Shown here: positions 157 through 44,465 of the stretch, piece after piece | How positions within the stretch are numbered: position 1 is the first letter of the stretch | Layout: the number at the start of each line of letters is the position of its first letter | Source of the DNA: a virus | Direction: 5' to 3' (one strand) | DNA length: 44,483 bases | Virus record (IMG/VR): IMGVR_UViG_3300029375_000005 | Position numbers and translations under genes: made by a program | The notes under the pieces: model-generated | What the model was told of the DNA's origin: nothing | The model's input: the letters and a program-made list of their open reading frames with translations, nothing else | Databases searched by the model: none

Positions 157-378
157 CTATTTCATTCCTTTCAACATGTGCTGGAATTGCCCTGCCATCT
201 GCTGAACCTGATTAAGTTGCTGTTGAGAAATCTTCCCAGACTGTAACATCTTCTCAACTTCTGCTTTCGGGTCTCCCTTAAAATTCTGTCTAAATTGCAT
301 GAACTGCTGTATCATCTGCATTGGCCCGTTTCCCTGTGACATCCCACCACCGAGGGTGTTAAATAATGGATTACTCAT
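157..378 (-). CDS. Hypothetical small Gln-rich protein (73 aa)
   Basis: ORF track. SD GGGAGG lies 8 nt upstream of the ATG. 8-nt ATGAGTAA overlap with the upstream ORF. Composition is Q/M/G-rich (GGGMSQGNGPMQMIQQFMQFRQNF). Confidence 0.6.
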   Translation of the reverse strand: MSNPLFNTLGGGMSQGNGPMQMIQQFMQFRQNFKGDPKAEVEKMLQSGKISQQQLNQVQQMAGQFQHMLKGMK

Positions 379-841
379 CTGCGTTTCCTCCCTTGACTGC
401 TGATTCCTGCACGGTATTAGCTCTAACAGGTTCAGAAAATGAATTTAATCGGTTTATGATAGCTTCGTATTTGCCCTTCAAATCATCATATTCCTGTCTG
501 GTGACATATTTACTGTCCATGTTCTGAACAGACTGCTTAGGCGGCATCTGAGCACCTACTTCATGGTATTCAAACGTCCGTAATGGTTGTGGCATACCGG
601 AAACGTCTGTGGATTTTATGTAGAACTTTTCACTTTCACTGTCCATCAGTAAAACGCTTGTCCCGGGTGCTACCAGATAGGATTTTGCACCCACTTCGCC
701 AGATACCCACAGAATGCCACTATTATTCTGCTGTGGTTGCTGTACTGGTTGAGCTGGCATCTGGACAGGCTGTTGCTGAAATTGGTTCATCTGTCCCGGA
801 ACACCAAAACTATATTGATAAGGATTGTTATATAATGCCAT
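371..841 (-). CDS. Hypothetical protein, Q/P-rich N-terminus plus beta-rich core (156 aa from MALYNN)
   Basis: ORF 371..934 trimmed to Met32 (ATG at 841), because the upstream extension runs into the divergent promoter region. N-terminus QFQQQPVQMPAQPVQQPQQNN, followed by GILWVSGEVGAKSYLVAPGTSVLLMDSESEKFYIKS. Confidence 0.6.
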   Translation of the reverse strand: MALYNNPYQYSFGVPGQMNQFQQQPVQMPAQPVQQPQQNNSGILWVSGEVGAKSYLVAPGTSVLLMDSESEKFYIKSTDVSGMPQPLRTFEYHEVGAQMPPKQSVQNMDSKYVTRQEYDDLKGKYEAIINRLNSFSEPVRANTVQESAVKGGNADE

Positions 842-946: not shown

Positions 947-969
947 TTGAGAAAAAAGGAGGGATTAAC

Positions 970-1149: not shown

Positions 1150-1150
1150 A

Positions 1151-1166
1151 AATAACGCACATATAC
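1151..1166 (+). promoter_or_regulatory. Operator repeat copy 2 (AATAACGCACATATAC)
   Basis: 14 of 16 positions match the copy at 924-939. Sits immediately upstream of the -35 of P2. Confidence 0.5.
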
Positions 1167-1168
1167 GC

Positions 1169-1197
1169 TTGACATATAACGCACATAGATGTATAAT
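1169..1197 (+). promoter_or_regulatory. Consensus sigma70 promoter P2 (TTGACA-17-TATAAT) with operator copy 3 in the spacer
   Basis: -35 at 1169-1174. The spacer 1175-1191 contains ATAACGCACATAGAT. -10 at 1192-1197. Confidence 0.6.
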
Positions 1198-1258
1198 AAA
1201 GACAGTTAAAGAAAACCAATTACACAGCCCCTACAAGGGGCGGAACGGAGGAAAAAAG

Positions 1259-1462
1259 ATGAGAAAATTTGAATTGAAACAGGTAGCCCGAAACAATTCC
1301 GAAAACTTCGGATGTGCCAAAGTTACAGCAGCTTGGCTGTGCGGCACAGAGTCCCAGAAAGAGGATTTTATAAATTCTCTGGGCGAGAACTGGGTGAGAA
1401 TCCCGGCGGAACTTGTTGACGAGACCACCGAGCAGAATTTTATTTCTTACGCTCGGGCATAA
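1259..1462 (+). CDS. Hypothetical small protein (67 aa, MRKFELKQVARNN...)
   Basis: ORF 1169..1462 trimmed to the ATG at 1259, which is preceded by GGAGG plus 7 nt. The upstream part of the tracked ORF overlaps promoter P2. Confidence 0.55.
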   Translation: MRKFELKQVARNNSENFGCAKVTAAWLCGTESQKEDFINSLGENWVRIPAELVDETTEQNFISYARA

Positions 1463-1479
1463 GGAGGAGGGAAAAGAAG

Positions 1480-1683
1480 ATGTTAGAAAGAAAAATTGAT
1501 CGAGCAATTGAGAAAGAAGCAATAAAAACCGGGAAGATGGGAACCGAACTGGTGACCGTAGAAATGGCACTGACAAGTGGAGAAATCGAGGAGTTTAGAA
1601 ACCTCGAAAAATATGACAGCGATCATTATTTTTGGGAAATCGAGGGTAACACCCTTAGAATTTCCTATACAGAAGAAATTTAA
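1480..1683 (+). CDS. Hypothetical small acidic protein (67 aa)
   Basis: ORF track. SD AAGGAGGAGGG upstream of the start. Last gene of the plus-strand unit, followed by a terminator. Confidence 0.6.
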   Translation: MLERKIDRAIEKEAIKTGKMGTELVTVEMALTSGEIEEFRNLEKYDSDHYFWEIEGNTLRISYTEEI

Positions 1684-1801: not shown

Positions 1802-2002
1802 TTAACACACTTTAATTATTTTATTATTCACCCTCCGGCTTAATCGTTTCGCCGTGGATATACTCACATTCATCTGTTCTGCACAGTATTCAAGAGTGTG
1901 TTCCTGACATCTCAGCCGAAACAGTCTTTCTTCGTCCGGTGTAAAATTGCACTCTAACAAGAATCTGTCTATATCTTTCTTAGTGAACACATATAATTTC
2001 AT
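1802..2002 (-). CDS. Small sigma-70 region-4-like HTH protein (66 aa)
   Basis: LFRLRCQEHTLEYCAEQMNVSISTAKRLSRRVNNKI matches the region-4 / LuxR-like HTH pattern. Start moved to the second ATG (2002), 7 nt after AAGGGG. Confidence 0.6.
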   Translation of the reverse strand: MKLYVFTKKDIDRFLLECNFTPDEERLFRLRCQEHTLEYCAEQMNVSISTAKRLSRRVNNKIIKVC

Positions 2003-2025
2003 GAGCATACCCCTTATTAATGCAA

Positions 2026-2331
2026 TTAACGCTGATTCTGTGCAAGATACTCCGTGAGCTTCTGCTTTGTTTTTTTTAACTCCTCGACGTTGTTTCCGCT
2101 GATCTGACTGTCTAGCATGGTTGATAACACTTCCAGAATTAATGAATCTCGTTCTGCGATTCTCCGAAGACTTTCATAATCTCGTCTATCATGCTCTTCC
2201 AGTGTCTCTACTCGCTTATTAAGTCGAAATACCGGAGTAATCCATTTAAAAATTACGGCTGCCGCGCCTCCGACAATAGACACCCCTCCGCAGATAGAGA
2301 GGAAAATCTGTACAAATTCTGATATGCTCAT
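2026..2331 (-). CDS. Membrane-anchored coiled-coil protein (101 aa)
   Basis: One N-terminal TM segment (FVQIFLSICGGVSIVGGAAAVIF), then charged helical sequence. SD AAGGAG present. ATGA overlap with the upstream ORF. Confidence 0.65.
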   Translation of the reverse strand: MSISEFVQIFLSICGGVSIVGGAAAVIFKWITPVFRLNKRVETLEEHDRRDYESLRRIAERDSLILEVLSTMLDSQISGNNVEELKKTKQKLTEYLAQNQR

Positions 2332-2717
2332 TTATTCTCCTTTTCCCAGTAATATACCGGGATCTCATTTCCGGAATCCCATGTATCGAAATATTTGCCA
2401 TCCTGCACTGTCACCACATGACCATCTATACAGAGAATGTATGTGCCTGTTGGATGATCTGCGCAAAAGTCATTGACTGTATAAATATATCGCTCCGACT
2501 GCTCAATCAGTTTTCGCCTGTATCCATGCTTATAGAGGTACGCTCCCCAGACATAATTTGCGCTCGGCATATCTGACAGAGTACATGCCTGTATCATTAA
2601 TCCGGCGAATACTGTTTCCCAGTCGAAGCCAGTTGCTTTACATATTGCCCGGACAACGCAATCTCCTGTTCTCTTATCCTTAACAGGATTTGGATTGAAA
2701 TATTCCCATCTATCCAT
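2328..2717 (-). CDS. Hypothetical protein with candidate Cys-His-Asp triad (129 aa)
   Basis: GDCVVRAICKATG ... CIDGHVVTV ... FDTWDSG has spacing reminiscent of papain-like peptidase or toxin folds. 1-nt overlap (TGATG) with the MuF gene. Confidence 0.65.
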   Translation of the reverse strand: MDRWEYFNPNPVKDKRTGDCVVRAICKATGFDWETVFAGLMIQACTLSDMPSANYVWGAYLYKHGYRRKLIEQSERYIYTVNDFCADHPTGTYILCIDGHVVTVQDGKYFDTWDSGNEIPVYYWEKENK

Positions 2718-19585: not shown

Positions 19586-20278
19586 CTAACTGATACTCAT
19601 TTGAGCGTTACAGTCACGTATCATCATTACTGTATTGGTGCATGGATGCCAATTTCTGACATATTCCATAGATTCTTCAAATCTCAGCTTAGGAATGTTA
19701 TTGCGGGCATTTACTGTGAAGTAAGTCTTTATATCCCTGTTGCATTCAGCAAATACTTTCTTGCCAATTTCCTTGTAAGCATTTGATTCTTTCCCACCAA
19801 GGTGAGCAATTACGACACTTGACACTAAGTCCCTAATAGCTTCCTGCTGTGCATAGTCAATAGTCATGGTGTTTTCAAGTCTGTTAAGCCGTTCTTCGTG
19901 ATCTAAGAATCCTGTCGCAATAACCTGTATCTGTTCAACTGTCGTCAGTGGTTTCCGGTATGAGCCTGTCTTTCTGATTGTCGGAAGAACTTCATCCATA
20001 ACCCATGATTCGAATTTCTCTGCTGATGGAAGTTTCGATTTCATAATCAAGCGGTACAAATCTCCCTCTGTTATGAAACTTGCTTCCTGATTCCTGCCGA
20101 GAGAATCTGTGAGGTGGTGTTTTACCACCCCACGGCAATGCTGTTTAAGTGCATTAACCGTGTCCTTGTAACCAAGTGCTTTCGCAACGTCAGCTCCAAC
20201 AAAATACGGTTTCCCGTCAATTTCTATTGTTCGAATTTCTCCGAACTCTCCTGAATTAAAAATCTGTAATTCGTTCAT
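19586..20278 (-). CDS. Antirepressor (Bro-N domain plus ORF6C-like C-terminus)
   Basis: LQIFNSGEFGEIRTIEIDGKPYFVGADVAKALGY ... ESWVMDEVLPTIRKTGSY is the Bro-N signature. Confidence 0.85.
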   Translation of the reverse strand: MNELQIFNSGEFGEIRTIEIDGKPYFVGADVAKALGYKDTVNALKQHCRGVVKHHLTDSLGRNQEASFITEGDLYRLIMKSKLPSAEKFESWVMDEVLPTIRKTGSYRKPLTTVEQIQVIATGFLDHEERLNRLENTMTIDYAQQEAIRDLVSSVVIAHLGGKESNAYKEIGKKVFAECNRDIKTYFTVNARNNIPKLRFEESMEYVRNWHPCTNTVMMIRDCNAQMSIS

Positions 20279-20658: not shown

Positions 20659-21003
20659 ATGACATTTGGCGAGAAAATCAAGCAAGCCAGAACGGCAAAG
20701 AAGCTGACTCAGAAGCAACTTGCAGAAAAAATCAATGCAAAGCATAATTCAATTAGCGACTGGGAAAAAGATAAGTGTAAACCAGATATGGACACCATTG
20801 AGCTTCTATGTGGCGTTTTGGAAGTAACACCGACATACCTCATGGGTTCTAAAAGCGATGACGATTATGCAATCATAATTGGAAATCTTATGTCAGAACC
20901 TGACATCTTAGATTTTATCGAGGAATACAAAGCACTCGATAAAGAAGATAAGAAAGCAATAAAACAAATAGTTTCATCACTAAACAAAAAGAGCAAGGGT
21001 TAA
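20659..21003 (+). CDS. cI-like XRE-family HTH repressor (114 aa, no peptidase domain)
   Basis: FGEKIKQARTAKKLTQKQLAEKINAKHNSISDWEKDK. SD AAAGGAGG upstream. Divergent from the cro-like gene. Confidence 0.85.
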   Translation: MTFGEKIKQARTAKKLTQKQLAEKINAKHNSISDWEKDKCKPDMDTIELLCGVLEVTPTYLMGSKSDDDYAIIIGNLMSEPDILDFIEEYKALDKEDKKAIKQIVSSLNKKSKG

Positions 21004-21992: not shown

Positions 21993-22168
21993 ATAAAAAA
22001 CCGCCCTGGCATTGGCGTACCGGGACGGCGTTTATACATCTCCGGAGAGATGCTATATTCTGGCAAAACATATTGTATCATCTTCGGAGCAGTCGAACAA
22101 GACAGAAAATTTGTTCGGCTGTTATTTTTATACCTAAAAACAGCTACATAAAGAAAAGAGGAATAAAA

Positions 22169-23347
22169 ATGGCGAAGAAAAGAAAGAAATATCCAAAATT
22201 GCCGAATAACTTCGGCTCTATTCGGTACCTTGGCAAGAACCGGAGAAACTGCTTCGCAGTGCATCCACCGGCTACACCGGATGATACTGGCAAACTAAAA
22301 CGTCCGCCGGCGATCTGCTACGTGGATGACTGGATAAAAGGCTTTACTGTCCTGACAGCTTACAAAGCCGGCACGTATCAACCAGGCATGGAGCGGACTC
22401 TTGAGGTATCCCCCACAACCGACATAGACACTCTTATAAGCCGCTTGATTGCCGACTACAATACAATCAAGGGTGTAGAGGATAAGCACCCGGAAATCAA
22501 GAAATTGACGTTCTCAGAGGTATATAAACAGTTTTATGCGTGGAAGTTCCCAAATGGGACAAAACTGTCATGCAGTTCAAGGGAAGCATATCGGACGGCT
22601 TACACGAACTGCACCGTTCTGCACAATCGCATATTCGAAGATTTAAAGGCTCCTGATATGCAAAAGGTTATTGATGATTGCAAGCTGAAAAAGCAAAGCC
22701 AGATGGCTATTTTAACTCTATTCAAGCAGATGTACAAATATGCCGTATACTCAGAAATTGTAACGGAAAATAAGGCGTTATATGTCCATGTTAATGCTGA
22801 TAATGACACCGAACATGGAACGCCATTTTCTGATCAGGAACTACAAACTTTATGGGATAATGCCAACGATCCAGAAGTGCAGCTCATTCTTATTATGTGC
22901 TATTCTGGTTGGAGAATTGGTGAAGTGTTAAAACTTACGACCAACTTGGAAGAGAAATACTTTCAAGGTGGAATCAAAACAAAAGCCGGTAAAAACAGAA
23001 TTGTTCCGATACATCCTGCCATATACCATTTTGCTGAACAGAAAGTGCTGGCACAAGATGGAAAACTATGTGTATATACTCAGCAACACCATAGAAAAGC
23101 GTTGTTCTATCCTACACTGGAACGTTTGGGAATAGTCGGAAATCCGAAACACACGCCGCACGATTGTCGACATACCTTTTCTGCGCTGTGTGAAAAATAC
23201 GGTGTCCGGGAGAATGACCGAAAGCGAATGCTCGGCCACTCTTTTGGTGGAGATGTTACAAACGCTGTGTACGGCCACAGAACACTGGAAGAACTCCGGA
23301 CAGAAATAGAAAAGATAAAAGTTCCATTTGTGACTAACTGTGACTAA
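22169..23347 (+). CDS. int: Tyrosine recombinase / phage integrase
   Basis: Catalytic motifs HTPHDCRHTFSA and LGHS....AVYGH near the C-terminus. Start set at MAKKRKKYPKLP (22169) with an AAGAGGA SD. Confidence 0.9.
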   Translation: MAKKRKKYPKLPNNFGSIRYLGKNRRNCFAVHPPATPDDTGKLKRPPAICYVDDWIKGFTVLTAYKAGTYQPGMERTLEVSPTTDIDTLISRLIADYNTIKGVEDKHPEIKKLTFSEVYKQFYAWKFPNGTKLSCSSREAYRTAYTNCTVLHNRIFEDLKAPDMQKVIDDCKLKKQSQMAILTLFKQMYKYAVYSEIVTENKALYVHVNADNDTEHGTPFSDQELQTLWDNANDPEVQLILIMCYSGWRIGEVLKLTTNLEEKYFQGGIKTKAGKNRIVPIHPAIYHFAEQKVLAQDGKLCVYTQQHHRKALFYPTLERLGIVGNPKHTPHDCRHTFSALCEKYGVRENDRKRMLGHSFGGDVTNAVYGHRTLEELRTEIEKIKVPFVTNCD

Positions 23348-23671: not shown

Positions 23672-25099
23672 TCATTTAGAAATTTCTGTAATTCTGGTGA
23701 ATGTTCCTTTTGGAATAAATTCAAAAACAAACCCTTCTGTCGGATGTGGGATGCGGATGAAATACCATTTCAGCCCCGAACTGTCTGTTTCTGTGTACTT
23801 CATCACCTCTACAACTGCACCTTTTTTTAACTGCGGAAACAGTTTTGACGGGCTGTTTTTGTTTGATTTTGTATAGCATTTTGTGTCCTTTTTGATCTGT
23901 GCAATATAGGCTCTGGTGTTCTGCTTTTTGGTTGTATCTGAGTCTGAAACTGACGTTGTATTTTTAACTAAACTGTAATTTGGAGTACAGAATTTTGTTC
24001 CGGGAAGGTTGCTGTTGTAGTAACTTTTCTGACATACGCCACCACCATTTGCGATAATTGTAGAGCCACCAGAAGTGTTTCCTTCGACTGTCCAGAATCG
24101 ATCTCCTGATACCTTTGTTACGATTCCGGTATGTGTAAATGTGCCATTTCGATAAAAAATAACAATATCTCCAATCTTCGGATTGCTGTTCAGGGTAAAC
24201 AAATCCGCCATTGTCGGACAGTAAACGTATGGCCAGTGCTTCAAAAGTTTCTTCGCTGTGTCTAAGCCGAATGCTTTCATGAAGCACCAACTCACGAATG
24301 CAGCGCACCATGGCTGCCTTTGATAATCCGGTTTAATATCTCGCCAGTATTTCGTATAATTATTTTCTCCGACATTTGCTGTCTTACTATCAAGCTGACT
24401 ATTGCTTGCCTTTTCAAGATATCCGGTTTCATTCTTTGCGATCTGGATTAATTTATCAATTGCTTTCATGTCTGTCTCCTCACTTTCCGGGAAATATGTT
24501 TTCAACGCATTATAAACAAATCTCTGTCTGTCCTTATATGCTCCCACCTGATTCCCTGTGTCCGTCTGGCAGGCTGCATAGAGATTATCAAGCGTATATG
24601 GCTTCTGAGTCTTTGCTAAAATCCTCGTTACTGCTCCCTGTCCGCCTTGGTGTCTAAAGTTCACGCACATAGCTTGCGCTCTGGCGTCTGTAACGCCCTG
24701 CTTAAGGGCTTCGTCTGCATAGGTGGATAACTGTTCATCCATAAGGCTATCTTGGCATTTAACGCCTAAATCGGACGAGATAAGAGCAACTATAGTGTCT
24801 GCGAGCTGTGATACCCTGGAAATATTAAAACATTCCCAGTTTGCGGTCTGGACCTGTTCCAAAAGTCTGACCTTGTCTATCTTCTTCCACTGTTCCGGGT
24901 CGGCATCGTAAATTCGTTCCAGAAGTGTTTTAGCTTCGATTCCGTACCACTGTCCCGCCCCGATTGTGATTGCGTGTTCTTCAGAAGAATTGGTGTAGGC
25001 TTCCGTGAAGTCCGAATAATCCTGCTGTCCGTAAACCTGTTCGCCAGTTTCGACCGCATAAATAATTTTCCTGAGAACTACTTTTTGATTATTTGTCAT
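23672..25099 (-). CDS. Multidomain endolysin: N-terminal lysozyme/transglycosylase-like domain, CHAP domain, C-terminal SH3-like wall-binding domain
   Basis: CHAP motifs QPWCAAFVSWCF, FTHTGIVTKV and TVEGNTS. C-terminal LKKGAVVEVMKYTETDSSGLKWYFIRI is SH3-like. The call for the N-terminal 200 aa (VETGEQVYG...) is weak. Confidence 0.85.
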   Translation of the reverse strand: MTNNQKVVLRKIIYAVETGEQVYGQQDYSDFTEAYTNSSEEHAITIGAGQWYGIEAKTLLERIYDADPEQWKKIDKVRLLEQVQTANWECFNISRVSQLADTIVALISSDLGVKCQDSLMDEQLSTYADEALKQGVTDARAQAMCVNFRHQGGQGAVTRILAKTQKPYTLDNLYAACQTDTGNQVGAYKDRQRFVYNALKTYFPESEETDMKAIDKLIQIAKNETGYLEKASNSQLDSKTANVGENNYTKYWRDIKPDYQRQPWCAAFVSWCFMKAFGLDTAKKLLKHWPYVYCPTMADLFTLNSNPKIGDIVIFYRNGTFTHTGIVTKVSGDRFWTVEGNTSGGSTIIANGGGVCQKSYYNSNLPGTKFCTPNYSLVKNTTSVSDSDTTKKQNTRAYIAQIKKDTKCYTKSNKNSPSKLFPQLKKGAVVEVMKYTETDSSGLKWYFIRIPHPTEGFVFEFIPKGTFTRITEISK

Positions 25100-25582: not shown

Positions 25583-28018
25583 TTAGAAACATAAGCAAGG
25601 GGCGAGGCTCCTTTCTTGACTGGCATCGGCGATGTTCGTATTCCCTGTCGCATTCACAACACAGAAGGACTCATTGGCACTGCGGCGAGGCGAACGCTCC
25701 CACCAAATCCCAGACGTATAAGAATTGCTAGTTCGTGGGCTTTTATACCTGTTTGCGGTCGCATTCTTAAAGTATTGATACTGTGTTCCTTCACCTCCAA
25801 AAGAATATGGAATGTCACCAAAAATTTCGATTTCAGATAGTAAGAACGCATAATCGTTTGAAGTCTTGATTGTACTACTCTGACCTCCCACAGATGTCAG
25901 CTTTTTAACCTGTTTCATCATGCTTTGGACATAAGCAGGTAAACATTTCTTGTACACATTATTACACCATGTACGTCTTTCACAACCTTCCCAACCGCCG
26001 CTATTCATATCTGAGCTATTCATATAACCACATTCATGAGATGCATCGAGAGAATTGTTATATTCTGTCGTAGTGTCTAAATACAGCAGGCGTTCCGTCT
26101 GAATTGTAATAGCGGCTTTGGCCTTGCCATTGATAGCAGTTACCAAGTCGTCATGTTCAATTCCGATGATCACATAAGCATAATCATTTGCTTTGTGTGA
26201 CTCACTCACGCCTGTTGCATCCATAGTATTGTGATGGATGGTTCTCTTGTCGCCAACCGCCCAATATTCGCCAATATTGATTTTACCTGCGTAGTGCGCT
26301 TTAATCATCCTTGCTATTTCAGCATCCGTTCCGTCAGCGAATGTGACAATCTTCAATTCCCCTGGTTCACCGAGAAGTCTGTTTCCTGTATCGTAGTTGT
26401 ATACGCCATCAGTGTTGTATGGGAACAGCACGAAGTAATATTGTTTGTCGCTTGTTAACCCTGTGACTGTATAGCCTGTGGTTTTGTATTTATCTCGAAC
26501 CGTATTATCAACCACAAGCGTTCCGTCATCTGGATTTGCAGGATAGCCCGTTTCTTTCATTACAAGTTTTGTGCCAGCCCATGTAGAAAATGTTGAGCCA
26601 CTGATTACCGTGTTTTCAGGGTCTTGCCATTTAATTGTGACAGATGTGTTTGCATTTTCAATTGTTGGGTTGTTTACGGGTTTAGGGGTAACGGTCACGC
26701 CTCCGCCTTTTGCGTGGAGTGTTCCGTCTTCGTCTATGAATGTTGTCTTACCGTCGGGCTTAACCTTGCCAAGAGTTTCAGTTGTAGCAATCGGGACAGT
26801 CGCATCACTTCCCCTGTCTCCTTTTGGCCCTTTTATGTTGACTGTTTCGGGATTGGTGATTCCATCTGTGTTGCTCCAGCTTATATTTCCATCGGTGTCC
26901 ACACTTGGGACGAATGTAGTGCCCTTGTCTCCTTTAGGCCCGGCATCCCCAGCCTCTCCCTTTTCTCCTCGCGGCCCAGTATCTCCTTTTGCGCCCGTAT
27001 CGCCTTGCGGTCCGGTAATATTTACTGTCTGGGGGTTTTCAAGTCCCCCGTCATTACTCCAACTTATATTTCCTCTGCTGTCTACAACAGGAGTAAAGGT
27101 GATTCCTCGCACGCCAGCATCGCCTTGCTCGCCTTTTGGACCAACTGGTCCCTGTGGACCTTGCAGCCCAGTATCGCCTTTTAGACCCTGTATTCCCTGC
27201 TCTCCTTTTTCTCCGGGGTCTCCTTTTATGCCCTGCGGTCCCGGGTCGCCCTTTGGCCCTTGCGGACCAACTGGTCCCTGCGGACCTTGAGGCCCTTGAA
27301 TCCTGCCAGCATTGTTCCAATTCGCGCCGTCGAAAACCCACATTTCTCCGTCTATTAAATATGCATCGTTCTTCTCTGCGCTTAAAGGGAGGTCTGCCTC
27401 AGATTCTTTTGTACCAAGGATATTAAGAGATGTTCCATCATTTCCTTGTTCACCCTTTTCTCCTTGTGGGCCTTGTGGACCTTGTGGACCAACATCTCCT
27501 TTTTCACCTTGTGGTCCCTGCGGACCTTGAGGCCCTATAATATTACCAACATTTTCACTATCACCATCTGAAAATGTTATTGTCAAATTTCCATCTGTGT
27601 CGATACTGACCGCTGTGATAGAGATACCCCTTAGTGATTCTTTCTGCTCGGGTGTCAGCGATTCAAATGCTACGGTGCCATCCGCACCCTTTTCTCCCGG
27701 ATCACCTTTATCTCCTTTTTCACCCCTTGGACCCTGCGGGCCAGCAGGACCCTCTGCGCCTTTCTCTCCTTTATCTCCTTTTTCGCCTTTTGGACCCTGC
27801 GGGCCAACAAATTCTCCGGCATTGACCATCTCTGAAATATCCTCAATGGAACACAATCGTCTTACATCATTAGCCGCAAATGCAATGTATAAGGCTTTGC
27901 CAGATGGAACAGAAGGGTCATTGCCAAGAATCGCAACGGGCTCTCCAGGACGAATTTTCGATGTATCAAAATCAGCGTACATACCGCGCCGGAATTGTAT
28001 TGTATATGTATTGGCCAT
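25583..28018 (-). CDS. Collagen-like tail fibre / receptor-binding protein (811 aa)
   Basis: Multiple G-X-Y runs ([40 protein letters not shown]...), three related beta modules (..D.DGN.....S.....N....VNI.GP.G), and a C-terminal globular region ending WWERSP... Confidence 0.85.
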
Positions 28019-31683: not shown

Positions 31684-34600
31684 TTACGCTAACTCAAATG
31701 GGTTCTTCCCATTCCGGTTTCTTCTCATTTCAGCTTCACTGATAATAATATCTAACAGTTTTCTGCCGGATGCATTGACTGTAACATTGTAAGTGTTTCC
31801 ATCTCCCTGTCCTTTTCCTGACTCTTCCCGGACGATCTGACGCAACAGGCTTTCCGGTGCTTCCAAGTTATTACCTTTTTTCTGGTCGCCTAATACCGCA
31901 AGGAATTCGCTTCGTGGCGGAATAACTGCACCACTGGCCAGATACGGAATAGTTCCAATACGTGGAAATGTTGCATGAAATCCAATAGTCTTTGAACCAA
32001 ACGGTGTTGGAACAGTCCAAGGCCCAAAGGAAAATGCAGATTCAATTCCACCAATTGCATTATTAATCATTCCAACTGCATTATTAACAATACTGATTGC
32101 CTGATTAATCGGAGCTTTAATAAAATCCACAATGCCTTCAAATGCAGATCTGACTGCATCTCTGGCGGCATTAAACTTATTAGTGATAGCGTTTTTTATC
32201 GCTTCTACTTTATTAGACACAAACGTAGCTACGTTTTCCCATGTTCGGGATGTCTTGTTCTTTACGCTGTCCCATACGCCTACAACTTTAGTTTTAATTG
32301 CATTAAATACTGTGCTGGCTGTGGATTTAAGAGAGTTCCAAAGGCCAGAAAGTGTCTTTTTGATTGCGTTCCAGATTGTTGAAGTCAATGCTTTAATCGC
32401 ATTCCAAGCAGTGCTGATGATGCTCTTTATTATGCTCAACGCGCCTTTTGTTACGGTTTTAATTATCTCCCACGCACCCGACACAACATCTTTGATAAAA
32501 TTCCATGTTCCATCCGCAATCTCTTTTATTCCCTGCCAAGCCAGTTCCCAGTCTCCTGTGAAAACGCCTACAAGGAAATCAATGATTCCGCTCAGAGTGT
32601 CTGCTACATCACCAATTATTTTAATTAATGATTTTATGACTTTTATTGCTACGGTGCCTACAACGTTAATTACTTCCGCCATAACTGGAAGCAAATTCGC
32701 AATTATCCAGTTAATTAAAGGCACTAACACCGATTCCCACAGAAGTTTCAGGGAATCAATAAGTTTACCGAGGAAAGTCTCTATCTTTAAAATTGCGTCC
32801 CCTAATGGTCCCTCTAATAGCCCTTTGATTTGTTCTGCTAGTCCTTGAAAAATAGGAAGAACGTACGTGTTATATCCAGTTATCAGAGTTCCAAATATGC
32901 TTGATAGTCCATTTGCTATAGAATCAAAGAACGGCTTTACGTGTTCATCGTATAACCTCGATATTGCGTCACTAAGGTTTTGAACAACTGTTAAGACCCC
33001 ACTTGTTACAGTTTCTATTACTCCGAGGCTACCCTCGATTGCGGACTTTAAAATGTCCTTGTTGTCGATAAAAGGCTGCGCAATCATGTTAAGGATATCT
33101 CTGCCAAGTTTTGCAGCCGTTTCTGTAAGAACCATTCCGATTTCAGCAAAGATTCCGATTAAATCCGCAGTAATCTGCTGTGCGGTTTCTCCACCAAAAA
33201 CTGAGAAAACATCCGCAAAGGCGACTGCAAGATTCCCTGCGATTTGCGAAATTTCAGAGCCGATATTGAACATATCTATCAGATAGTTCTTTATTCTTTG
33301 CGTGTTCTGCTTTAAAAACTTTTCAATTCCGCCTATAATGTTTTGTGCAATTGTCAATCCAATTCTGGCAAATGAACCGGCAACTTGTCCAATTGCATAT
33401 GCAAATGAATCAAGAAAATTATTTGCTGCTTTAGTAACTTCTGAATCAGTAAAGATATCCTTTAAAGATTTCCATATGGAATCGAGATCCTTTTTTATTC
33501 CGTCAAGAATTGGTTCGTAATCTCCTAATCCATCCCAGAATCCTTTTGCGATTAACTTAGCCAACTGTTTAAATCTGTCGATTATCTTTTTTAGCGGTTT
33601 TGACATTTTATCAAGAACTGTCTCACCCTCTGCCAATTTTCCATAATCAACATTTTGTACAGCATCTTTCATCTGATCTGCAAGTCCGCCGGTTGCGCCC
33701 GGTACTTTTGACGATGAATCTGTGCTTTTATCCGTTGAGTAATTATTTATTTCGTCAAGAGGACTAAGATATCCTTTTGCCGCCTTAGTAGCTTTCTTAG
33801 TTGCATCTGCTGTATCATTTGTCGCATCTGCCAGCTTTTCGGCATTGTTGGCAGCATCTCCATATTGGTCTGCCGTATCAGCTATTGCATCTGTTCCGAC
33901 AAGACCTGCACCACTTGCGCCTGTCTGGCCAGATGATTTCTTTCCAGTGATTAATTCCGTAAATGACTTGAAGGCATTTGCCAGAGTTGCTAACTTACCG
34001 AGCAAGATATTAATAACTCTCAAAACGGGAGTGAAGAGATTGATTAATCCCTGTCCGACTGTTGCCTTGAGAGATTGCAACTGTAACTGCATCACTCTGA
34101 CCTGGTTCGCCCATGAGTCAGATGTTCGAATGAAATCACCAGATGCGGCAGACAACTGTTTCTGTACAAAAGCCAAGCGGAGAGCCACTTTCTCCTGTTC
34201 AGTCATGGCGGATGTGGTTTTACCATAGCCATTTGCCAGCGCGAACTGGTCAAGCGCCGACTGGGTCATTACCACACCGAGGTCCTTGAGTGTTTCCGTT
34301 TCACCTGTAAACACTGATTTCAACTTAATATAAGCCAAGTCCTGACTGATGTTATAGAACGAAGCCACATCACCAGTCAGCTGTGTCAGAGCTGTTGACA
34401 TGTCGTAAGCCTGTGCTTCAGAGAAACCGAACGACTTAGACATTGCTCCGAACGTACCAACATACCTTTTTGCCATTGTCTCTGACAGTCCAGCTGAAGT
34501 CATGGCATTCTTTGCAAATTCGTTCACCTTGTCCGACATGGTTGTAAATGTAACATCAACCACGTTCTGTACTTCTGCGAGGTCGGAACCAAGCTCCACA

Positions 34601-34776
34601 CACTCTTTTCCGAACTGTGCTAACTTGCCAACTGCGAATGCTCCGCCAATCAGTATGCCTATTTTTTTTACTACGCTGCCAAGTCCGTTAAAAGACTGCC
34701 TGATTGCTGATACGCCGTTTTGCACGCCTGATGTGTCCATTCTGGTATCAATAATGACTGAGCCATCAGCAGCCAT
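31684..34776 (-). CDS. Tail tape measure protein
   Basis: 1030 aa, long helical repeats, a hydrophobic central region, and position after the two chaperone genes. Confidence 0.9.
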   Translation of the reverse strand: MAADGSVIIDTRMDTSGVQNGVSAIRQSFNGLGSVVKKIGILIGGAFAVGKLAQFGKECVELGSDLAEVQNVVDVTFTTMSDKVNEFAKNAMTSAGLSETMAKRYVGTFGAMSKSFGFSEAQAYDMSTALTQLTGDVASFYNISQDLAYIKLKSVFTGETETLKDLGVVMTQSALDQFALANGYGKTTSAMTEQEKVALRLAFVQKQLSAASGDFIRTSDSWANQVRVMQLQLQSLKATVGQGLINLFTPVLRVINILLGKLATLANAFKSFTELITGKKSSGQTGASGAGLVGTDAIADTADQYGDAANNAEKLADATNDTADATKKATKAAKGYLSPLDEINNYSTDKSTDSSSKVPGATGGLADQMKDAVQNVDYGKLAEGETVLDKMSKPLKKIIDRFKQLAKLIAKGFWDGLGDYEPILDGIKKDLDSIWKSLKDIFTDSEVTKAANNFLDSFAYAIGQVAGSFARIGLTIAQNIIGGIEKFLKQNTQRIKNYLIDMFNIGSEISQIAGNLAVAFADVFSVFGGETAQQITADLIGIFAEIGMVLTETAAKLGRDILNMIAQPFIDNKDILKSAIEGSLGVIETVTSGVLTVVQNLSDAISRLYDEHVKPFFDSIANGLSSIFGTLITGYNTYVLPIFQGLAEQIKGLLEGPLGDAILKIETFLGKLIDSLKLLWESVLVPLINWIIANLLPVMAEVINVVGTVAIKVIKSLIKIIGDVADTLSGIIDFLVGVFTGDWELAWQGIKEIADGTWNFIKDVVSGAWEIIKTVTKGALSIIKSIISTAWNAIKALTSTIWNAIKKTLSGLWNSLKSTASTVFNAIKTKVVGVWDSVKNKTSRTWENVATFVSNKVEAIKNAITNKFNAARDAVRSAFEGIVDFIKAPINQAISIVNNAVGMINNAIGGIESAFSFGPWTVPTPFGSKTIGFHATFPRIGTIPYLASGAVIPPRSEFLAVLGDQKKGNNLEAPESLLRQIVREESGKGQGDGNTYNVTVNASGRKLLDIIISEAEMRRNRNGKNPFELA

Positions 34777-40037: not shown

Positions 40038-41204
40038 TCATTTTGCTGTTACGCTTGCACTTCCGGCATTCAGCGCTTTGTATGTTCCATCACACTCAAC
40101 CACTGTAATCTTCTGCCCGGTTGCTGCCTTAATGTCGGCTTTTCCGTCCCATGTAGTCCAGTTTCTGAGATTCTGGCCATAAGTTACAGCTGTTTCAGAT
40201 GCACCAACTTTGTACTTGTACACATTGCCAGCGTTTTCTTTAGTCGGATTTACAGTGATTTTTGTATCACCAGTTGCTGTTCCTTCCGCAGATGTTACTG
40301 CCAGAGTGCCGAGCGTTGGTGTTTCGTCAATGGTAATTACTGCAATTGCATCAATGTACTCTGCAAAAAGAGTAAGTCCCATAACCGCAAACGCTTCGGA
40401 TACTGCTGTGTGGTAGTTGCCCTGTGTATGGAATCCGATCAGGTTTGTTTCGCCAGATACGGTATACACAAGACCTGCTCTCGCAAAGTCAGACTCGTTC
40501 GGGTCTACATAGTAAAGTACGATGTTCTCAACAGGGGTAGCAATAACCTGTCCTCTCGGAATCTCGCTGTCGGACAGTAAGAAGATTGTATTGAATCCCA
40601 TAAAGTCCTTCATGTACTGGAATCCGAACTGATTCTGAATAGTGATCTCAGCTGCTCCGAGATATTCATATACGTCCAGAATGTTGACAAATCCAACAAC
40701 GCCAGTCACATTTCTGTGCATCTGTTTAAATTTGTTTTCAACACGACCCTTAGCCATTGCCAGAGCCATCTGGAATGTTGTTTCTGTGGAAGTAAGTGTA
40801 CCGGTTTTCAGATAGTCATAGAATCTGCCGGTAACATCAGTCTGAAGCTGGAAAAGAAACTCGTCATCAGTCATCTGAACAGCGTTCTCATAACCGTGGT
40901 CCTTGATTGCTTCGATAGATACAGCCTTTGCGTACTTTTCGATAGTCATTTCCGCATAGGTCTTTTCTTTTACGGTAAACTTGCTGTAAGGGATTTCCTC
41001 ACCCTCACCAACTTTTCCACTCTGTAAAGTACCCTCTGCGTATTTGGACTTGAGTACAGCACCCGGCTGCTTTTTGATAGGTCTCATGATACCCAGAATA
41101 TCACGTAAGTGCTGCCAGTTTCTTTCGAATCTGGTAACAAAGTCAATCTCACGTGCCGTGACATGAATATCATTAGTCATAATAAGATTTGTTTTTGCTG
41201 GCAT
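40038..41204 (-). CDS. Major capsid protein with C-terminal Ig-like domain
   Basis: 388 aa after the scaffold gene. The C-terminal roughly 90 aa (LAVTSAEGTATGDTKITVNP...KITVVECDGTYKALNAGSASVTAK) looks like a Big_2-type Ig domain. Confidence 0.85.
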   Translation of the reverse strand: MPAKTNLIMTNDIHVTAREIDFVTRFERNWQHLRDILGIMRPIKKQPGAVLKSKYAEGTLQSGKVGEGEEIPYSKFTVKEKTYAEMTIEKYAKAVSIEAIKDHGYENAVQMTDDEFLFQLQTDVTGRFYDYLKTGTLTSTETTFQMALAMAKGRVENKFKQMHRNVTGVVGFVNILDVYEYLGAAEITIQNQFGFQYMKDFMGFNTIFLLSDSEIPRGQVIATPVENIVLYYVDPNESDFARAGLVYTVSGETNLIGFHTQGNYHTAVSEAFAVMGLTLFAEYIDAIAVITIDETPTLGTLAVTSAEGTATGDTKITVNPTKENAGNVYKYKVGASETAVTYGQNLRNWTTWDGKADIKAATGQKITVVECDGTYKALNAGSASVTAK

Positions 41205-41281: not shown

Positions 41282-41914
41282 TCACTGGAATAACTGGATA
41301 TTCTGAGCGATTGCAGCCTGTCTCTCGGACGGGTCTTTGATTGCTTCGATATCTTTTTTGGTCATACTTCCCGGTGTCTGCTGCTGTCCAACGTGAGTGG
41401 TAAATCTTGCCTGATTCTGCTGAGCCTGCTGCTGAGATTCATCCACAAAAGCGGATGCGTCAGACTGTTTCATCTGTTCGATCAGGTCGTTTAATCCAAG
41501 GATTTTGCCATCTTTCAGCTTCAATCCGGCTTCTTTGATGTCTGCCATAACAGACTTCTTTGCTGCTTCGCTGGAAAACTTAACATCATCGAGTGCCGCT
41601 TTCAGAGCATCTGAGAAATCTCTGTCGTAGATTTTTGCGTTGAACTCTTTTTCTGCGTCCTCGGCTTTTTTCTTCCATCCAGCAAGCTCTGTCTGAATGT
41701 TTTCCGGGTCGATACCGTCAAAACCTTTTAAGGTTTCTTCTGCTGTCTCAGCACGTTCTTTCCAGTTGTCACGTTCACCCTCGACTTTTAACAGAGTTTT
41801 CGCTACTTCCTTTGCATTCTTGTAATTCTCAGAGAGTGCTTTCTTTACATCTGCCTGTTTATCCTCCGGGATTTCAATTCCAAATGATTTTAAAGTGTCA
41901 ATAAGTTTCTGCAT
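41282..41914 (-). CDS. Scaffolding protein (GP20-like)
   Basis: 210 aa, helical, K/E-rich (FGIEIPEDKQADVKKAL...). Lies immediately upstream of the MCP gene. Confidence 0.85.
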   Translation of the reverse strand: MQKLIDTLKSFGIEIPEDKQADVKKALSENYKNAKEVAKTLLKVEGERDNWKERAETAEETLKGFDGIDPENIQTELAGWKKKAEDAEKEFNAKIYDRDFSDALKAALDDVKFSSEAAKKSVMADIKEAGLKLKDGKILGLNDLIEQMKQSDASAFVDESQQQAQQNQARFTTHVGQQQTPGSMTKKDIEAIKDPSERQAAIAQNIQLFQ

Positions 41915-41991
41915 AACATCCTCCTGGTCGTGTTTATTGACCTGCCGCCGCAGGTAAATGGATTAAGCCAGTTAGACCACTGGCAGGGTAA

Positions 41992-42063
41992 TCGGAAAGG
42001 CAGGAATCGAACCTACGGCACATAGCTTACAATGCCATTGCTCTACCACTGAGCTACATTCCA
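41992..42063 (-). tRNA. tRNA-Thr (anticodon UGU), acceptor stem imperfect
   Basis: Reverse complement: TGGAATG TA GCTC AGTGGTA GAGC A ATGGC ATTGTAA GCTAT GTGCC GTAGG TTCGATT CCTGC CTTTCCG A. D, anticodon and T arms are canonical. The acceptor has U1.G72 and a U6.U67 mismatch. No encoded CCA. Confidence 0.65.
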
Positions 42064-42194
42064 TGCCGCCTGTAACGGACAGTTAAAAAAAACTGAGTTG
42101 AGTTTCACCTTTTTCGCTATAGCGTAAACCCACCTGAGACATAGACCACCTGTATACAAACAGCTTAACTCTAAGCGGATTAAAGCAGAACGCC

Positions 42195-42263
42195 CGGAAT
42201 CGAACCGGAGACCAGAGCGCGACTCTGTCAGTTTTCCACTAGCGTACATTCCACATAACCCGG
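42195..42263 (-). ncRNA. Aberrant tRNA-like element (canonical T arm, non-canonical D/anticodon region)
   Basis: Reverse complement: TGGAATG TACGCTAGTGGAAAACTGA CAGAG-TCGCG-CTCTG GTC TCCGG TTCGATT CCGGG CGTTCTG C. The acceptor needs three G.U pairs. The 5' 9-mer TGGAATGTA is identical to that of tRNA-Thr. No D stem. The anticodon-position hairpin has a 5-nt (or open 7-nt GUCGCGC) loop. Confidence 0.4.
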
Positions 42264-42402
42264 ATTCCCGGGTTAGCAAGGTGTTTAACGTGTCATGCCT
42301 GCCACGAGTTGTTTCGGATATTTATTTCTTTTTTAAAAGAAAAGTATGAATAACAAAAACCTTAATCAAGGAGGTGAGCCATCTTGCGTGCCAGATGGCA
42401 AA

Positions 42403-42452
42403 TACGCACGACAGGATTCGAACCTGTTCAACTTTCCGTTAAAGCGTGCGTA
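42403..42452 (-). ncRNA. Truncated tRNA-like minihelix (8-bp acceptor-like stem, small hairpin, T arm)
   Basis: Reverse complement: TACGCACG CTTT-AACGG-AAAG TTGA ACAGG TTCGAAT CCTGT CGTGCGTA. No D arm and no 7-nt anticodon loop with U33. Followed by the hairpin GCCATCT-ggcacgca-AGATGGC. Confidence 0.4.
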
Positions 42453-42546
42453 CCAGCTACTAAATTAAAGAAAGGAGGATTAAAACGAAAATGTCAAAAA
42501 CAACCGTTTTACTTGTGCTTCCTGCTGCACAATTACATTATAACAG

Positions 42547-42555
42547 ATTTCTTTT
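42547..42555 (-). promoter_or_regulatory. Possible extended -10 (TGTTATAAT) upstream of the tRNA-like cluster
   Basis: The reverse complement of 42547-42555 reads TGTTATAAT. No good -35 element. Confidence 0.3.
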
Positions 42556-42583
42556 AACTACCTCTCTACCACTTTTTGTGTTT

Positions 42584-43138
42584 TTAGAGCATATCACGGA
42601 GTTTTTCTACGTATCTCTTGACAAGATCACGTTCTTCCCGGCACTCTGCATCCTTGGACATATCACTCATTTCTGTTGTAAGTTCGTCCAGATGTTCTTC
42701 CAGAGCGGCAAGCATCTTTCTTTTGCAGTCCTCAGACTTGCCGGAACGATAGCTCTGTTTCTGCGTCATGTAATCGTCATAAGCATCTCGTCCGTCAGAG
42801 CGGCTGTAATGTCCTCTAACATAATGCTCACCACGTCTGGCATAAGAACTGCCTCGGTCATAATCCGGCATCATTCTGCCGTCATTTGCGCTGTATCTCC
42901 CCATGCTGTCGCGCTTTCTTCCGCGTTCGCTGTAATCGTCATTGTATCCGCCACGCATCTCATCAAGGACAGTGTTATAGTACTCCACTTTCTTGTCCCA
43001 GTACTGCGTGTTCTTTATGTCTTTGTACATATCAATCAGTTTGTATGTCATTTCCAGATTTCCAGTGGTCAGTCCATTATCAGCGATTTTGGACAGTTCG
43101 TCTTCAATTCTTGCACATAAGTCTTTAATGTCTCTCAT
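42584..43138 (-). CDS. Hypothetical protein with helical ends and an R/G/Y/D-rich low-complexity centre (184 aa)
   Basis: SD GGAGGTG 6 nt upstream of the start. Centre reads RGGYNDDYSERGRKRDSMGRYSANDGRMMPDYDRGSSYARRGEHYVRGHYSRSDGRDAYDDY. Confidence 0.7.
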   Translation of the reverse strand: MRDIKDLCARIEDELSKIADNGLTTGNLEMTYKLIDMYKDIKNTQYWDKKVEYYNTVLDEMRGGYNDDYSERGRKRDSMGRYSANDGRMMPDYDRGSSYARRGEHYVRGHYSRSDGRDAYDDYMTQKQSYRSGKSEDCKRKMLAALEEHLDELTTEMSDMSKDAECREERDLVKRYVEKLRDML

Positions 43139-43149
43139 AATCGCACCTC

Positions 43150-43572
43150 CTACGCTTCTCTGGTCACAACAATGTTTGCGTTCGCAACAGAAATTGCCTG
43201 ATCGCTTGTGTTTTCTATTGCGACATTAACGCAACATCCACAAGGAACGTCAATATAGATACCTGCGGACACATTATTGTACTGATTTACTGCTGCCGGT
43301 GTGGAAATCATCTGAGAAGAAAGAACCGGCTCACCAGAAATTGCAATTGCCAGAGAAATAGCTCCGACAGTACCGCCTGTTGGAATTGCGATATTACCAG
43401 AAAAATCCACGAAGAATCTCGCTTTACACTGGTTAGTCAGTCCTCTCAGAGTGATGATTCCACTTCCCTCTCTGTGCTGAATGCAGTTAGAACCCTTAAC
43501 TGCTGTGTTTGAAAATACTACGTTTCCATTTGCTGCTACAGTCTGAGCAGCTACATTTGTAAATTCTGCCAT
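43150..43572 (-). CDS. Small beta-rich protein, possible BclA-C-terminal/C1q- or Ena-like jelly roll with CGCC motif (140 aa)
   Basis: Tracked ORF trimmed to MAEFTNV (ATG at 43572, AAAGGAG 8 nt upstream). Alternating beta pattern: AAQTVAANGNVVFSNTAV...ITLRG...ARFFVDFSGNIAIPTGGTVGAISLAIAISGEPV...IYIDVPCGCCVNVAIENTSDQAISVANANIVVTREA. Confidence 0.65.
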   Translation of the reverse strand: MAEFTNVAAQTVAANGNVVFSNTAVKGSNCIQHREGSGIITLRGLTNQCKARFFVDFSGNIAIPTGGTVGAISLAIAISGEPVLSSQMISTPAAVNQYNNVSAGIYIDVPCGCCVNVAIENTSDQAISVANANIVVTREA

Positions 43573-43685
43573 AAAGAATACTCCTTTCATATAACAAAAA
43601 GGGCAGGTATCAGCCTGCCCATCTGTGTAATACGGCATAAGCCGACATCCGAAATCAATCGAAAGATACTCTCGATATGAAGTTG

Positions 43686-44465
43686 TCAGCAATTACATCC
43701 AGTGTTGCATCCGCATCCGTAATATGTGTTCGGGTTCGGTACCTGGTAAGCCGGAATCGGTGCTGGATTGATTGCATTAATGAGCTGCTGTGTCTGAGAA
43801 GCCATTGCAGTTGTGAGAAGTGCGCTCTGGCGATCCTGAGATGCAGCACGTCTGAGATCATTATTCTCAGCCTGCAGACTAGAAATCTTTTCATTGCAAA
43901 GATAGTCAAGAATGGCTCTTGTTCCTGCATTCTGACTGTCAATAATGTCTCTTGTGTTACTGTTCATTGTGTTCTGCAATGCGCAGGTATTCTGTGCCAT
44001 ATTGTAGTTTACGCCCTGGATAGCTTCCCTGGTTTCACAACAGCAGTTCGCAAGCTGTGCCTGTAAAGCGTTGGCGTTCTGCATATTCGCTACAGTATCA
44101 GCATTGATTGCCTGCTGGATTCCAAAGCCGGTCTGCATGATGTTTGTGTTGATTCCATTGAATCCAGTAAGCATACCGTTATTCATGGCATAAAAGCCAT
44201 CGCACAGGCCACTGTTGATTCCGTCAAGTTTGCTGATTACTGCGGAGTTATCGAATCCTCTCTGAATGTCTGCCTGGGTAGCTGCTGTGGCTGTATATCC
44301 GCCGCCGTTGCCATTATTGCCCCAGCCGTTGTTTCCCCATCCGAAGAAAGCAAAAATGAATAAAACAATAATCCACCAGCTACCATCTCCGCCAAACATG
44401 CCGTCATTATTTCTACCGTTTCCAGTAGCAGCGGCAATATCTGCTAAGCTATAATTTCCATCCAT
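43686..44465 (-). CDS. Membrane-anchored Gly/Asn/Gln-rich protein with Cys clusters (259 aa)
   Basis: SD AAGGAG 8 nt upstream. N-terminus GGDGSWWIIVLFIFAFFGWGNNGWGNNGNGGG (one TM), a long N/Q/A-rich region containing NCCCETREA, and the extreme C-terminus YYGCGCNTGCNC. Confidence 0.7.
   Translation of the reverse strand: MDGNYSLADIAAATGNGRNNDGMFGGDGSWWIIVLFIFAFFGWGNNGWGNNGNGGGYTATAATQADIQRGFDNSAVISKLDGINSGLCDGFYAMNNGMLTGFNGINTNIMQTGFGIQQAINADTVANMQNANALQAQLANCCCETREAIQGVNYNMAQNTCALQNTMNSNTRDIIDSQNAGTRAILDYLCNEKISSLQAENNDLRRAASQDRQSALLTTAMASQTQQLINAINPAPIPAYQVPNPNTYYGCGCNTGCNC

Follow-up and report, generated by a model that had tools for sequence, protein, structure and literature searches.

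What does a short, beta-rich protein encoded among the head genes of a gut phage do, and does it belong to the virion, to the surface of the host or to the interior of the infected cell? The stretch of DNA analysed here (the window, 44,483 nucleotides) is a whole phage genome, circularly permuted, and belongs to a temperate siphovirus of gut Firmicutes. The genes listed for it are all on the minus strand, namely those for the terminase large subunit (5394-6635), portal (3949-5394), minor head protein (2717-3946), scaffold (41282-41914), major capsid protein (40038-41204), tape measure (31684-34776), collagen-like fibre (25583-28018), endolysin (23672-25099) and Bro-N antirepressor (19586-20278), except the tyrosine integrase (22073-23347) and a CI-like HTH protein (20659-21003), which are on the plus strand; a tRNA-Thr lies at 41992-42063. 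The gene in question, called B hereafter (43150..43572, minus strand), is found between the minor head protein and scaffold genes, on the late strand.

The reading frame of B is open on the minus strand over 43150..43692. Its conserved start is the ATG at 43572, which is preceded by GAAAGGAG and an 8-nt spacer and hence has a good RBS, and the in-frame extension upstream of this ATG is not conserved. From the conserved start the product is exactly 140 aa long (MAEFTNVAAQ...IVVTREA), as the initial annotation had stated for this beta-rich ORF. At E≤0.001 we found at least 7,970 homologous database proteins (best 1e-78); B also matches 721 clusters at 50% identity as well as phrog_20016 ('unknown function', 1e-61), and the median dN/dS against 53 distinct relatives is ~0.06. 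Together with a confident structure model (see below), these values establish B as a genuine gene under very strong purifying selection and not a chance ORF. The sequence features named earlier are all present, with AAQTVAANGNVVFSNTAV at residues 8-25, IPTGGTVGAISLAIAISGEPV at residues 63-83, PCGCCV at residues 110-115 and ISVANANIVVTREA at the C-terminal end, although the distance from PCGCCV to the C-terminus is 25 residues and not about 30 as had been given. B has five cysteines (30, 49, 111, 113 and 114), none of them near the N-terminus. The best-conserved motif in an alignment of 75 representatives is GNIAxPTGGT, with N60 invariant; GCC is the majority state and not an invariant one, CC being kept in 62 of the 64 loci described below and absent from some of the 50%-cluster representatives. 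There is no signal peptide or hydrophobic leader, as MAEFTNV leads straight into the first beta strand, and no GXX repeats or collagen-like stalk were found in B.

For modelling we used the alignment of 75 representatives, which are 37-59% identical. In the AlphaFold2 monomer (pLDDT 98.0, pTM 0.90) DSSP assigned 11 strand segments; the model is all-beta and shows the ten-strand jelly-roll sandwich of TNF topology that characterises the TNF/C1q-like superfamily (SSF49842). The best Foldseek match in the PDB is the CTD of the F-BclA tip fibrillum of B. thuringiensis (9h38, E 5e-8, TM 0.71-0.76); other top matches are ExsFA/BxpB (7r1m, 8d02 and 9h3d, TM 0.76), the BclA CTD (1wck, 3twi and 2z5w, TM about 0.69-0.70) and EDA-A1 (1rj7, TM about 0.7), and C1q, cerebellin and 4-1BBL heads follow in several entries with lower TM. 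Foldseek gives a probability of 1.00 for BclA-CTD, F-BclA-CTD, EDA-A1, C1q, 4-1BBL and ExsFA (TM 0.57-0.76). In BFVD the best matches are free-standing proteins of 130-145 aa from uncultured phages (TM 0.8-0.9), two of them auto-named 'BclA protein', and many C1q or collagen fibre proteins are also matched; the look-alikes come from contigs named Sipho-, Myo- and Podoviridae. The resemblance to a BclA-CTD/C1q jelly roll, which had been noticed by eye only, is therefore confirmed at the level of the predicted structure, and B may be described as a stand-alone TNF/C1q/BclA-CTD-like jelly roll.

Sequence searches returned no match for B in Pfam-A at E≤1 (the HMMs of BclA_C PF18573, C1q PF00386 and TNF PF00229 included) or in NCBIfam. 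Nothing significant was obtained from sequence and profile searches of the PDB either (best E 0.13 and 0.089), the top profile match at the non-significant E of 0.089 being 9h38, the same entry that Foldseek ranks best. Since it lies outside PF18573 and is devoid of the stalk and leader by which BclA is defined, B is classed as a new family by sequence, though not by fold. On assigning the DSSP strands by inference to the canonical A-H scheme, GNIAxPTGGT would form the C-D loop at the distal apex, while Cys49 (B-C loop) and C111-G-C113-C114 (F-G turn) would lie at the base, beside both termini. It may be noted that in BclA, C1q and the TNF ligands it is at the base that the stalk enters.

The structural neighbours were compared with B in turn. 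The CTDs of BclA and F-BclA, found on the spore surface of the Bacillus cereus group, are like B in size (~135-140 aa) and in the predicted all-beta TNF-like jelly roll, yet B is only 12-17% identical to them and has no Pfam match. Also, in contrast to BclA, B is a free-standing phage ORF of gut anaerobes lying outside sporulation regulons, with a CGCC turn and a dedicated membrane-protein neighbour (gene A, see below). We rejected its identification as a BclA-type collagen-like glycoprotein, as neither an exosporium leader nor a (GXX)n stalk precedes the head. ExsFA/BxpB, which anchors in the basal layer of the exosporium, is like B a stand-alone TNF-like protein without a stalk, and single-domain B conforms to this type of free-standing TNF-like protein of about 150-170 aa. 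ExsF is trimeric, and peptides of its partners bind in the clefts between its protomers (PMC12357932), which provides a functional precedent for B as a docking platform for A. Unlike ExsFA/BxpB, however, B is phage-borne and found in a phage context instead of a sporulation locus, shows no sequence similarity to it, and has as its proposed partner a membrane coiled-coil protein and not a collagen-like fibre. Our search of the literature on phage BclA/C1q-like accessory proteins and on phage-encoded coat or exosporium genes gave nothing relevant.

The initial annotation had also likened B to the Ena (DUF3992) subunits with their Cys-rich connectors, and this part of the proposal was not borne out. 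The structure prediction and Foldseek search suggested there place B among TNF/C1q/BclA-like proteins, with no Ena among the best 50 Foldseek PDB matches; neither DUF3992 nor DUF4183 matches B, and its cysteines are internal, so that the N-terminal connector is missing. Ena/DUF3992 identity is thus not supported, and only the small beta-rich size class and a CC motif are shared with Ena1A/Ena1B, the fold class being another one. It is consequently very improbable, in our estimate, that B polymerises head-to-tail through its Cys motif into a disulfide-locked, SDS-resistant filament, even though five cysteines including the CGCC turn are available and a protein that can replace B (B2, see below) has an N-terminal C-x3-C-x2-C that is superficially like the Ena connector. 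Members of the TNF-like fold are almost always homotrimeric and form closed trimers, not helical polymers, and some members of the B family dispense with the CC altogether.

To see what accompanies B, its neighbourhood was compared in 64 loci (58 from GTDB species genomes, 5 annotated phage records and the window), with neighbour genes called by clustering of same-strand ORFs; 80 further IMG/VR loci, of which almost all exceed 95% identity to the window, served solely for dN/dS and for a check of the RNA motif described below. The genes follow a fixed order, [F7 HTH] - F5 - [F9 HTH] - F3 - F4 - A - B - C - [F6], where B is present in all 64 loci, A in 59, C in 56, F3 in 49, F4 in 43, F5 in 39 and F6 in 17. 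The shortfalls are mostly due to contig ends, and most of the five loci without A end before the position of A, which in essentially every locus is directly upstream of B. In the window, C (42584..43138, minus strand, 184 aa) follows B, as it does in 56 of the 64 loci, and has helical ends around a low-complexity centre rich in R, G, Y, S and D. F4 (157..378, minus strand, 73 aa, phrog_22984) is a Q-rich helical protein directly upstream of A across the circular junction of the window. In F3 (371..841, minus strand, 156 aa from its ATG, phrog_21718) an N-terminus rich in P, Q and Y is followed by a conserved beta core (WVxGExGAKSYLVAP...FYIKSxDxSGMP) and then by a C-terminal helix. F9 (1802..2008, minus strand, 68 aa) is a small sigma-70 region-4-like HTH protein; either F9 or the related F7, which is of the same small sigma-r4-like kind, occurs in about one third of the module copies. 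The remaining gene of the window copy, F5 (2328..2717, minus strand, 129 aa, phrog_3754), has invariant D19-C20, H100 and D111, which suggests a papain- or C39-like Cys-His-Asp triad and a peptidase-like protein; 'putative peptidase' is the annotation given to homologues of F5 in Tsamsa-like phages of Bacillus. Every module family is of 'unknown function' in PHROGs, and Pfam, NCBIfam, PADLOC and PDB searches with B, A, C, F3, F4, F5, F6 and B2 gave nothing significant. The PADLOC defence models match neither B nor C, and the one match to A is a weak coiled-coil one, to the ZorA tail (E 0.008).

Gene A (43686..44465, minus strand, 259 aa) is the obligatory neighbour of B and carries one TM helix (WWIIVLFIFAFFGW). 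The tail in front of this helix is acidic and ~28 aa long with almost no K/R; across the homologues its median length is 30 aa, with a median of 0 K/R and 2 D/E. After the helix comes a G/W/N-rich linker, then long N/Q-rich helices, and the C-terminus consists of a PxPxPAY motif followed by a Cys-rich, GCGC-type tail (GCGCNTGCNC). The CCC at residues 141-143 is invariant and the GCGC nearly so. The model of A, with the TM helix and helices spanning 62-232, is of low confidence (pLDDT 44). There is no strict co-variation of cysteines between A and B, for in one locus (L147) B is without the CC while A keeps its Cys tail; the CC is almost fixed (62/64), and the contigs of the other CC-less variants are too short or have no A. 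Insertions interrupt A in some loci. A group I intron (RF00028, 70.5 bits) splits the gene in L040; it has homed into the invariant CCC codons, which marks this DNA as the most conserved site of A, and both the U expected ahead of the 5′ splice site and a terminal G are present. In L052 the gene is split by a 1.7-kb insertion that has a GIY-YIG-like ORF. As a separate observation, the N-termini of some A proteins look like double-glycine leaders and F5 looks like a C39 peptidase, both being matters of resemblance only.

A structured RNA of ~120 nt with three hairpins (43571..43687, minus strand) separates the stop codon of A from the start codon of B. P1 is variable and covarying, P2 reads AAUGUUCGGC-N4/5-GCCGAUA, and P3 is GC-rich with a U-run and terminator-like, with the RBS and ATG of B coming next. 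By covariance model the element was found once per locus and in module orientation in 38 of 67 sources, and in the loci checked it directly follows the stop of A, also in several that have an extra small ORF before B. All 18 pairs show compensatory changes, and 90.7% of the RNA cells are paired as against 36-65% in slid controls, with 0 of 500 shuffles reaching as high a value, on an alignment that was fitted to the model; no match was found in Rfam. Given a covarying, terminator-like RNA between the two genes, the expression of A and of B is decoupled or tuned, as far as this can be read from sequence, and with such a hairpin in between neither equal amounts nor the same timing of both proteins would be required.

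Nor is B the only protein that occurs after A. In Clostridium phage XP41-N3, Bajarodcaudo 2 and 5, Dulem 36 and two contigs from the human gut this slot is taken by B2, a Cys-rich beta protein of 123-146 aa with an invariant N-terminal C-x3/9-C-x2-C and at least 4,633 unnamed homologues. No match to it was found in Pfam or the PDB. Kinship of B2 with B was considered and dropped, the two being not demonstrably related (hhalign probability 0.8%). As B2 can replace B, the specific fold of B may not be essential to the module.

Where the module lies in phage genomes bears on its function. PHROG scans of the flanks gave mainly endolysins and amidases upstream and mainly integrases downstream, a scaffold being found in only 4 loci. 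The usual site is hence the one between endolysin and integrase, where the late operon ends and accessory genes ('morons') are classically found, and transcription is co-directional with the late genes. Butyrivibrio phage Ceridwen has the complete module after the lysis genes and a predicted terminator (A, B and C are there QHJ73768, QHJ73769 and QHJ73771), Dulem virus 39 has it after the integrase, and in XP41-N3 it is downstream of an amidase-holin pair, from which it is separated by an antirepressor gene and some twelve small ORFs. A prophage of Eubacterium ramulus carries it as well. The A-B pair occurs together at three different genome positions, and the same module adjoins unrelated head and tail gene sets; the location in the head-gene block, as in the window and Dulem virus 35, is a minority arrangement. 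Ceridwen was isolated on Butyrivibrio fibrisolvens and only a lytic cycle was observed for it (Ceridwen paper), whose main text does not mention mass spectrometry. The hosts according to GTDB are Lachnospiraceae, Oscillospiraceae, Ruminococcus, Clostridium, Selenomonadaceae and Solobacterium, some contigs being clearly mis-binned, and the module is also found in a contig assigned to Subdoligranulum; most hosts are Clostridia, including C. perfringens. We conclude that this is a mobile accessory module of temperate Firmicutes siphophages.

Mobility and the usual position between lysin and integrase argue against a core virion role of B. Such a role would make B a trimeric knob or decoration on the capsid or a fibre, with the other module proteins as assembly or attachment factors, and it would fit the location between the minor head and scaffold/major capsid genes on the late strand in the window and Dulem virus 35. 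TNF/C1q-like knobs are indeed frequent as receptor-binding or spike domains of phages (8ke9, 9eul and many BFVD fibre proteins), assembly into a virion needs no signal peptide, and both the very strong purifying selection on B and the retention of the module in Ceridwen, for which no cycle but the lytic one was seen, would suit a structural protein. But the known knobs of this fold class, the CBD of the short tail fibre of cyanophage A-1(L) (8ke9) and the central spike of phi812 (9eul), are C-terminal domains of long fibres from the tail module, whereas the 140 aa of B are encoded by an ORF of their own within an accessory module. It has no stalk or connector by which to be attached to a fibre, and its profile does not match the collagen-like fibre of the window phage itself. 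Further points against a virion protein are the unrelated head and tail genes alongside the module, the bona fide TM helix of the obligatory neighbour A and the terminator-like element ahead of B. On balance we regard incorporation of B into the virion as unlikely.

The closest solved structures, F-BclA, BclA and ExsFA/BxpB, are Bacillus spore-surface proteins, and they lead to another explanation, in which a lysogenic-conversion module builds or modifies a Cys-cross-linked layer on the spore (exosporium- or coat-like) or on the cell surface. B would then be BclA/ExsF-like, C and F3 a low-complexity matrix, and F5 a processing or cross-linking enzyme. The absence of a signal peptide is compatible with this explanation, as coat and exosporium proteins are made in the mother-cell cytoplasm without signal peptides. 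The module also has a classical moron position from lysin to integrase, its own small sigma-r4-like regulator, mostly clostridial hosts with C. perfringens among them, and a composition that may be called coat-like (Cys-rich A and B2, Tyr/Arg/Gly/Ser-rich C and Pro/Gln/Tyr-rich F3). Yet the hosts do not all agree with it. Butyrivibrio fibrisolvens is a non-spore-former, and some further hosts, for which contigs of Selenomonadaceae, Solobacterium and Subdoligranulum carry the module, are believed not to sporulate. The complete module of Ceridwen, in a non-sporulating host and with the lytic cycle as the only one seen, argues against a purely spore-surface role. Also against it are the co-direction of transcription with the late operon, the fragmentation of A and B in two decaying prophages on large contigs (L021 and L033), which is unexpected for a trait that benefits the host, and the want of any homology of B to coat or exosporium families in Pfam and NCBIfam. 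Both the surface-layer explanation and the parts it gives to B, C, F3 and F5 are in our view improbable.

The reading that we prefer, at a rough probability of 0.35 and hence tentatively, is that trimeric B stays in the cytoplasm and serves as a head or adaptor docking on membrane-bound A, and is not among the proteins from which the virion is built. By analogy with nearly all members of its fold, B would be a homotrimer, and for want of a leader it would be synthesised and retained in the cytoplasm. The acidic N-tail of A without K/R points to an N-out/C-in anchorage in the cytoplasmic membrane. A may form a trimeric coiled coil, with the base of the B trimer docking on its C-terminal Cys-rich tails. 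In favour of cysteines at this interface we counted the conservation of CCC and GCGC in A and of CC in B. The complex would then be comparable to an ExsF-like docking platform or to a type-II TNF ligand split over two genes. Type-II TNF ligands (EDA-A1, 1rj7; 4-1BBL) share the head fold with B (TM ~0.70), and A and B taken together, with a short N-tail, a TM helix, a stalk and a TNF-like head, mimic such a ligand. They differ from it in having stalk and head as separate polypeptides and a topology that is probably cytoplasmic and not extracellular; they are bacterial/viral, and there is no homology beyond the fold. The apex loop GNIAxPTGGT would be the ligand-binding face of B, and the terminator-like RNA would set the ratio in which A and B are expressed. 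The pair could thereby serve as an accessory device at the membrane during infection or lysogeny, in superinfection exclusion or in the control of lysis or assembly. We counted against this accessory device the poor model of A, the terminator-like hairpin between the two genes, the CC-less B of L147, the replacement of B by B2 in some phages, the common occurrence of TNF-like knobs on phage fibres (8ke9, 9eul), the lack of a signal from any PADLOC defence family, and the head-gene-block position in the window and Dulem virus 35, which is compatible with a virion role.

The probability that remains beyond the accessory device, the virion component, the spore- or cell-surface layer and the Ena-type fibre is given to something else. 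We also considered a more far-reaching idea, in which F5, F3, F4, A, B or B2 and C, with or without a Dps-like protein, constitute an unrecognised membrane-nucleated, Cys-cross-linked assembly. This could be an exosporium- or appendage-like layer or fibre, built either within infected cells or on lysogens or spores, where B would be the BclA/ExsF-like trimer, B2 an alternative Cys-connector subunit and the three-hairpin RNA an attenuator that tunes expression. We hold this idea to be doubtful in all three respects, as to the assembly, its form and location, and the parts played by B, B2 and the RNA.

In the literature and databases searched we did not find a description of the B sequence family, its stand-alone phage form or its fixed pairing with A, nor of the module of six to eight genes, the interchangeable B2 or the RNA between A and B. 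B, A and B2 each have unnamed homologues by the thousand in the gut viromes of humans and animals, and a confident fold for B together with fixed partners turns this dark matter of the gut virome into a testable unit, for which Butyrivibrio phage Ceridwen is a cultivable test system. The covarying intergenic RNA is a candidate for a new cis-regulatory motif. A membrane-tethered complex of A and B resembling a TNF ligand, if it does form, would add a new type to the accessory devices of Firmicutes phages; should the module instead make a structure of the coat or appendage kind, then phages would have a hand in shaping the surfaces of the dominant gut Clostridia and their biology.

A conserved three-hairpin RNA was found on the (-) strand of the window (43571-43687), in the interval between the membrane-protein gene A and B, the gene of the 140-aa TNF/C1q/BclA-CTD-like protein, and it is also conserved at the related loci collected for comparison (L009:9883-10003, L031:7933-8053 and 35 others). 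The first hairpin, P1, is variable, P2 has the form AAUGUUCGGC..GCCGAUA, and P3 carries a U-run and resembles a terminator. Compensatory changes were seen in 18 of the 18 pairs. No Rfam family was matched by this RNA, which we regard as a candidate for a new attenuator or stabiliser motif. The slot after A is filled in some phages by B2, a Cys-rich, beta-type protein of 123-146 aa that is unrelated to B and has an invariant N-terminal C..C..C (L144:5670-6047, L145:5902-6321, L150:4313-4696, L151:4306-4710, L152:4377-4817 and L153:1601-1972). B2 has at least 4,633 homologues, all of them unnamed, and is without a match in Pfam or PDB. Some module variants carry an additional protein of 175-335 aa (L154:4604-5197, L150:4913-5692, L145:6326-7333 and L144:6628-7155), the motif of which, F(L/F)GL.G(F/Y)K(R/K)(L/M)HE(F/Y), resembles by eye a Dps/ferritin-like signature; a Pfam scan of one member (L144:6628-7152) gave no match. 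Elsewhere in the window, several blocks of collagen-like GXX repeats occur in the 811-aa tail fibre (25583-28018, (-)), whose C-terminal domain (phrog_37900) is unannotated; the fibre was found to be unrelated to B in a profile search. The 670-nt gap between C and the scaffold gene (41915-42583) is without convincing ORFs and holds a tRNA-Thr (UGU) at 41992-42063 on the (-) strand.

At the other end of the module, the invariant D-C, H and D residues of F5 (window 2328-2717, (-)) suggest a papain- or C39-like triad, and double-glycine-leader-like N-termini (LSAADVAAV..GN/GG) are present in some A proteins; F5 and A could be a protease-substrate pair. F5 is also found outside the module, in Bacillus Tsamsa-like phages, Geobacillus phage GBK2 and Prevotella Lak megaphages. 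Between F9, the small HTH gene, and F3 lies a lineage-specific insert of three small ORFs on the opposite strand (window 919-1683, (+)), with a perfect (12/12) sigma-70 promoter at 1169-1197 and a ribbon-helix-helix-like look to the first ORF (MATEAQKRAVRKYENSNYRLNIVFPKGTKERIEKL...); nothing in Pfam was matched by these ORFs, and the insert may represent a cassette of the toxin-antitoxin or moron type. The gene A is itself interrupted at two of the related loci, by a group I intron (L040:9263-9564; RF00028, 70.5 bits) inserted inside the codons of its invariant cysteine triplet, and by an insertion with a GIY-YIG-like ORF that splits the gene (L052, about 4770-6070). In Butyrivibrio virus Ceridwen an extra gene is present between B and C (L001:6518-7312), and its 264-aa product, which has a Cys-rich N-terminus, looks by eye like an HNH or homing endonuclease, a further sign of mobile-element traffic in the module.
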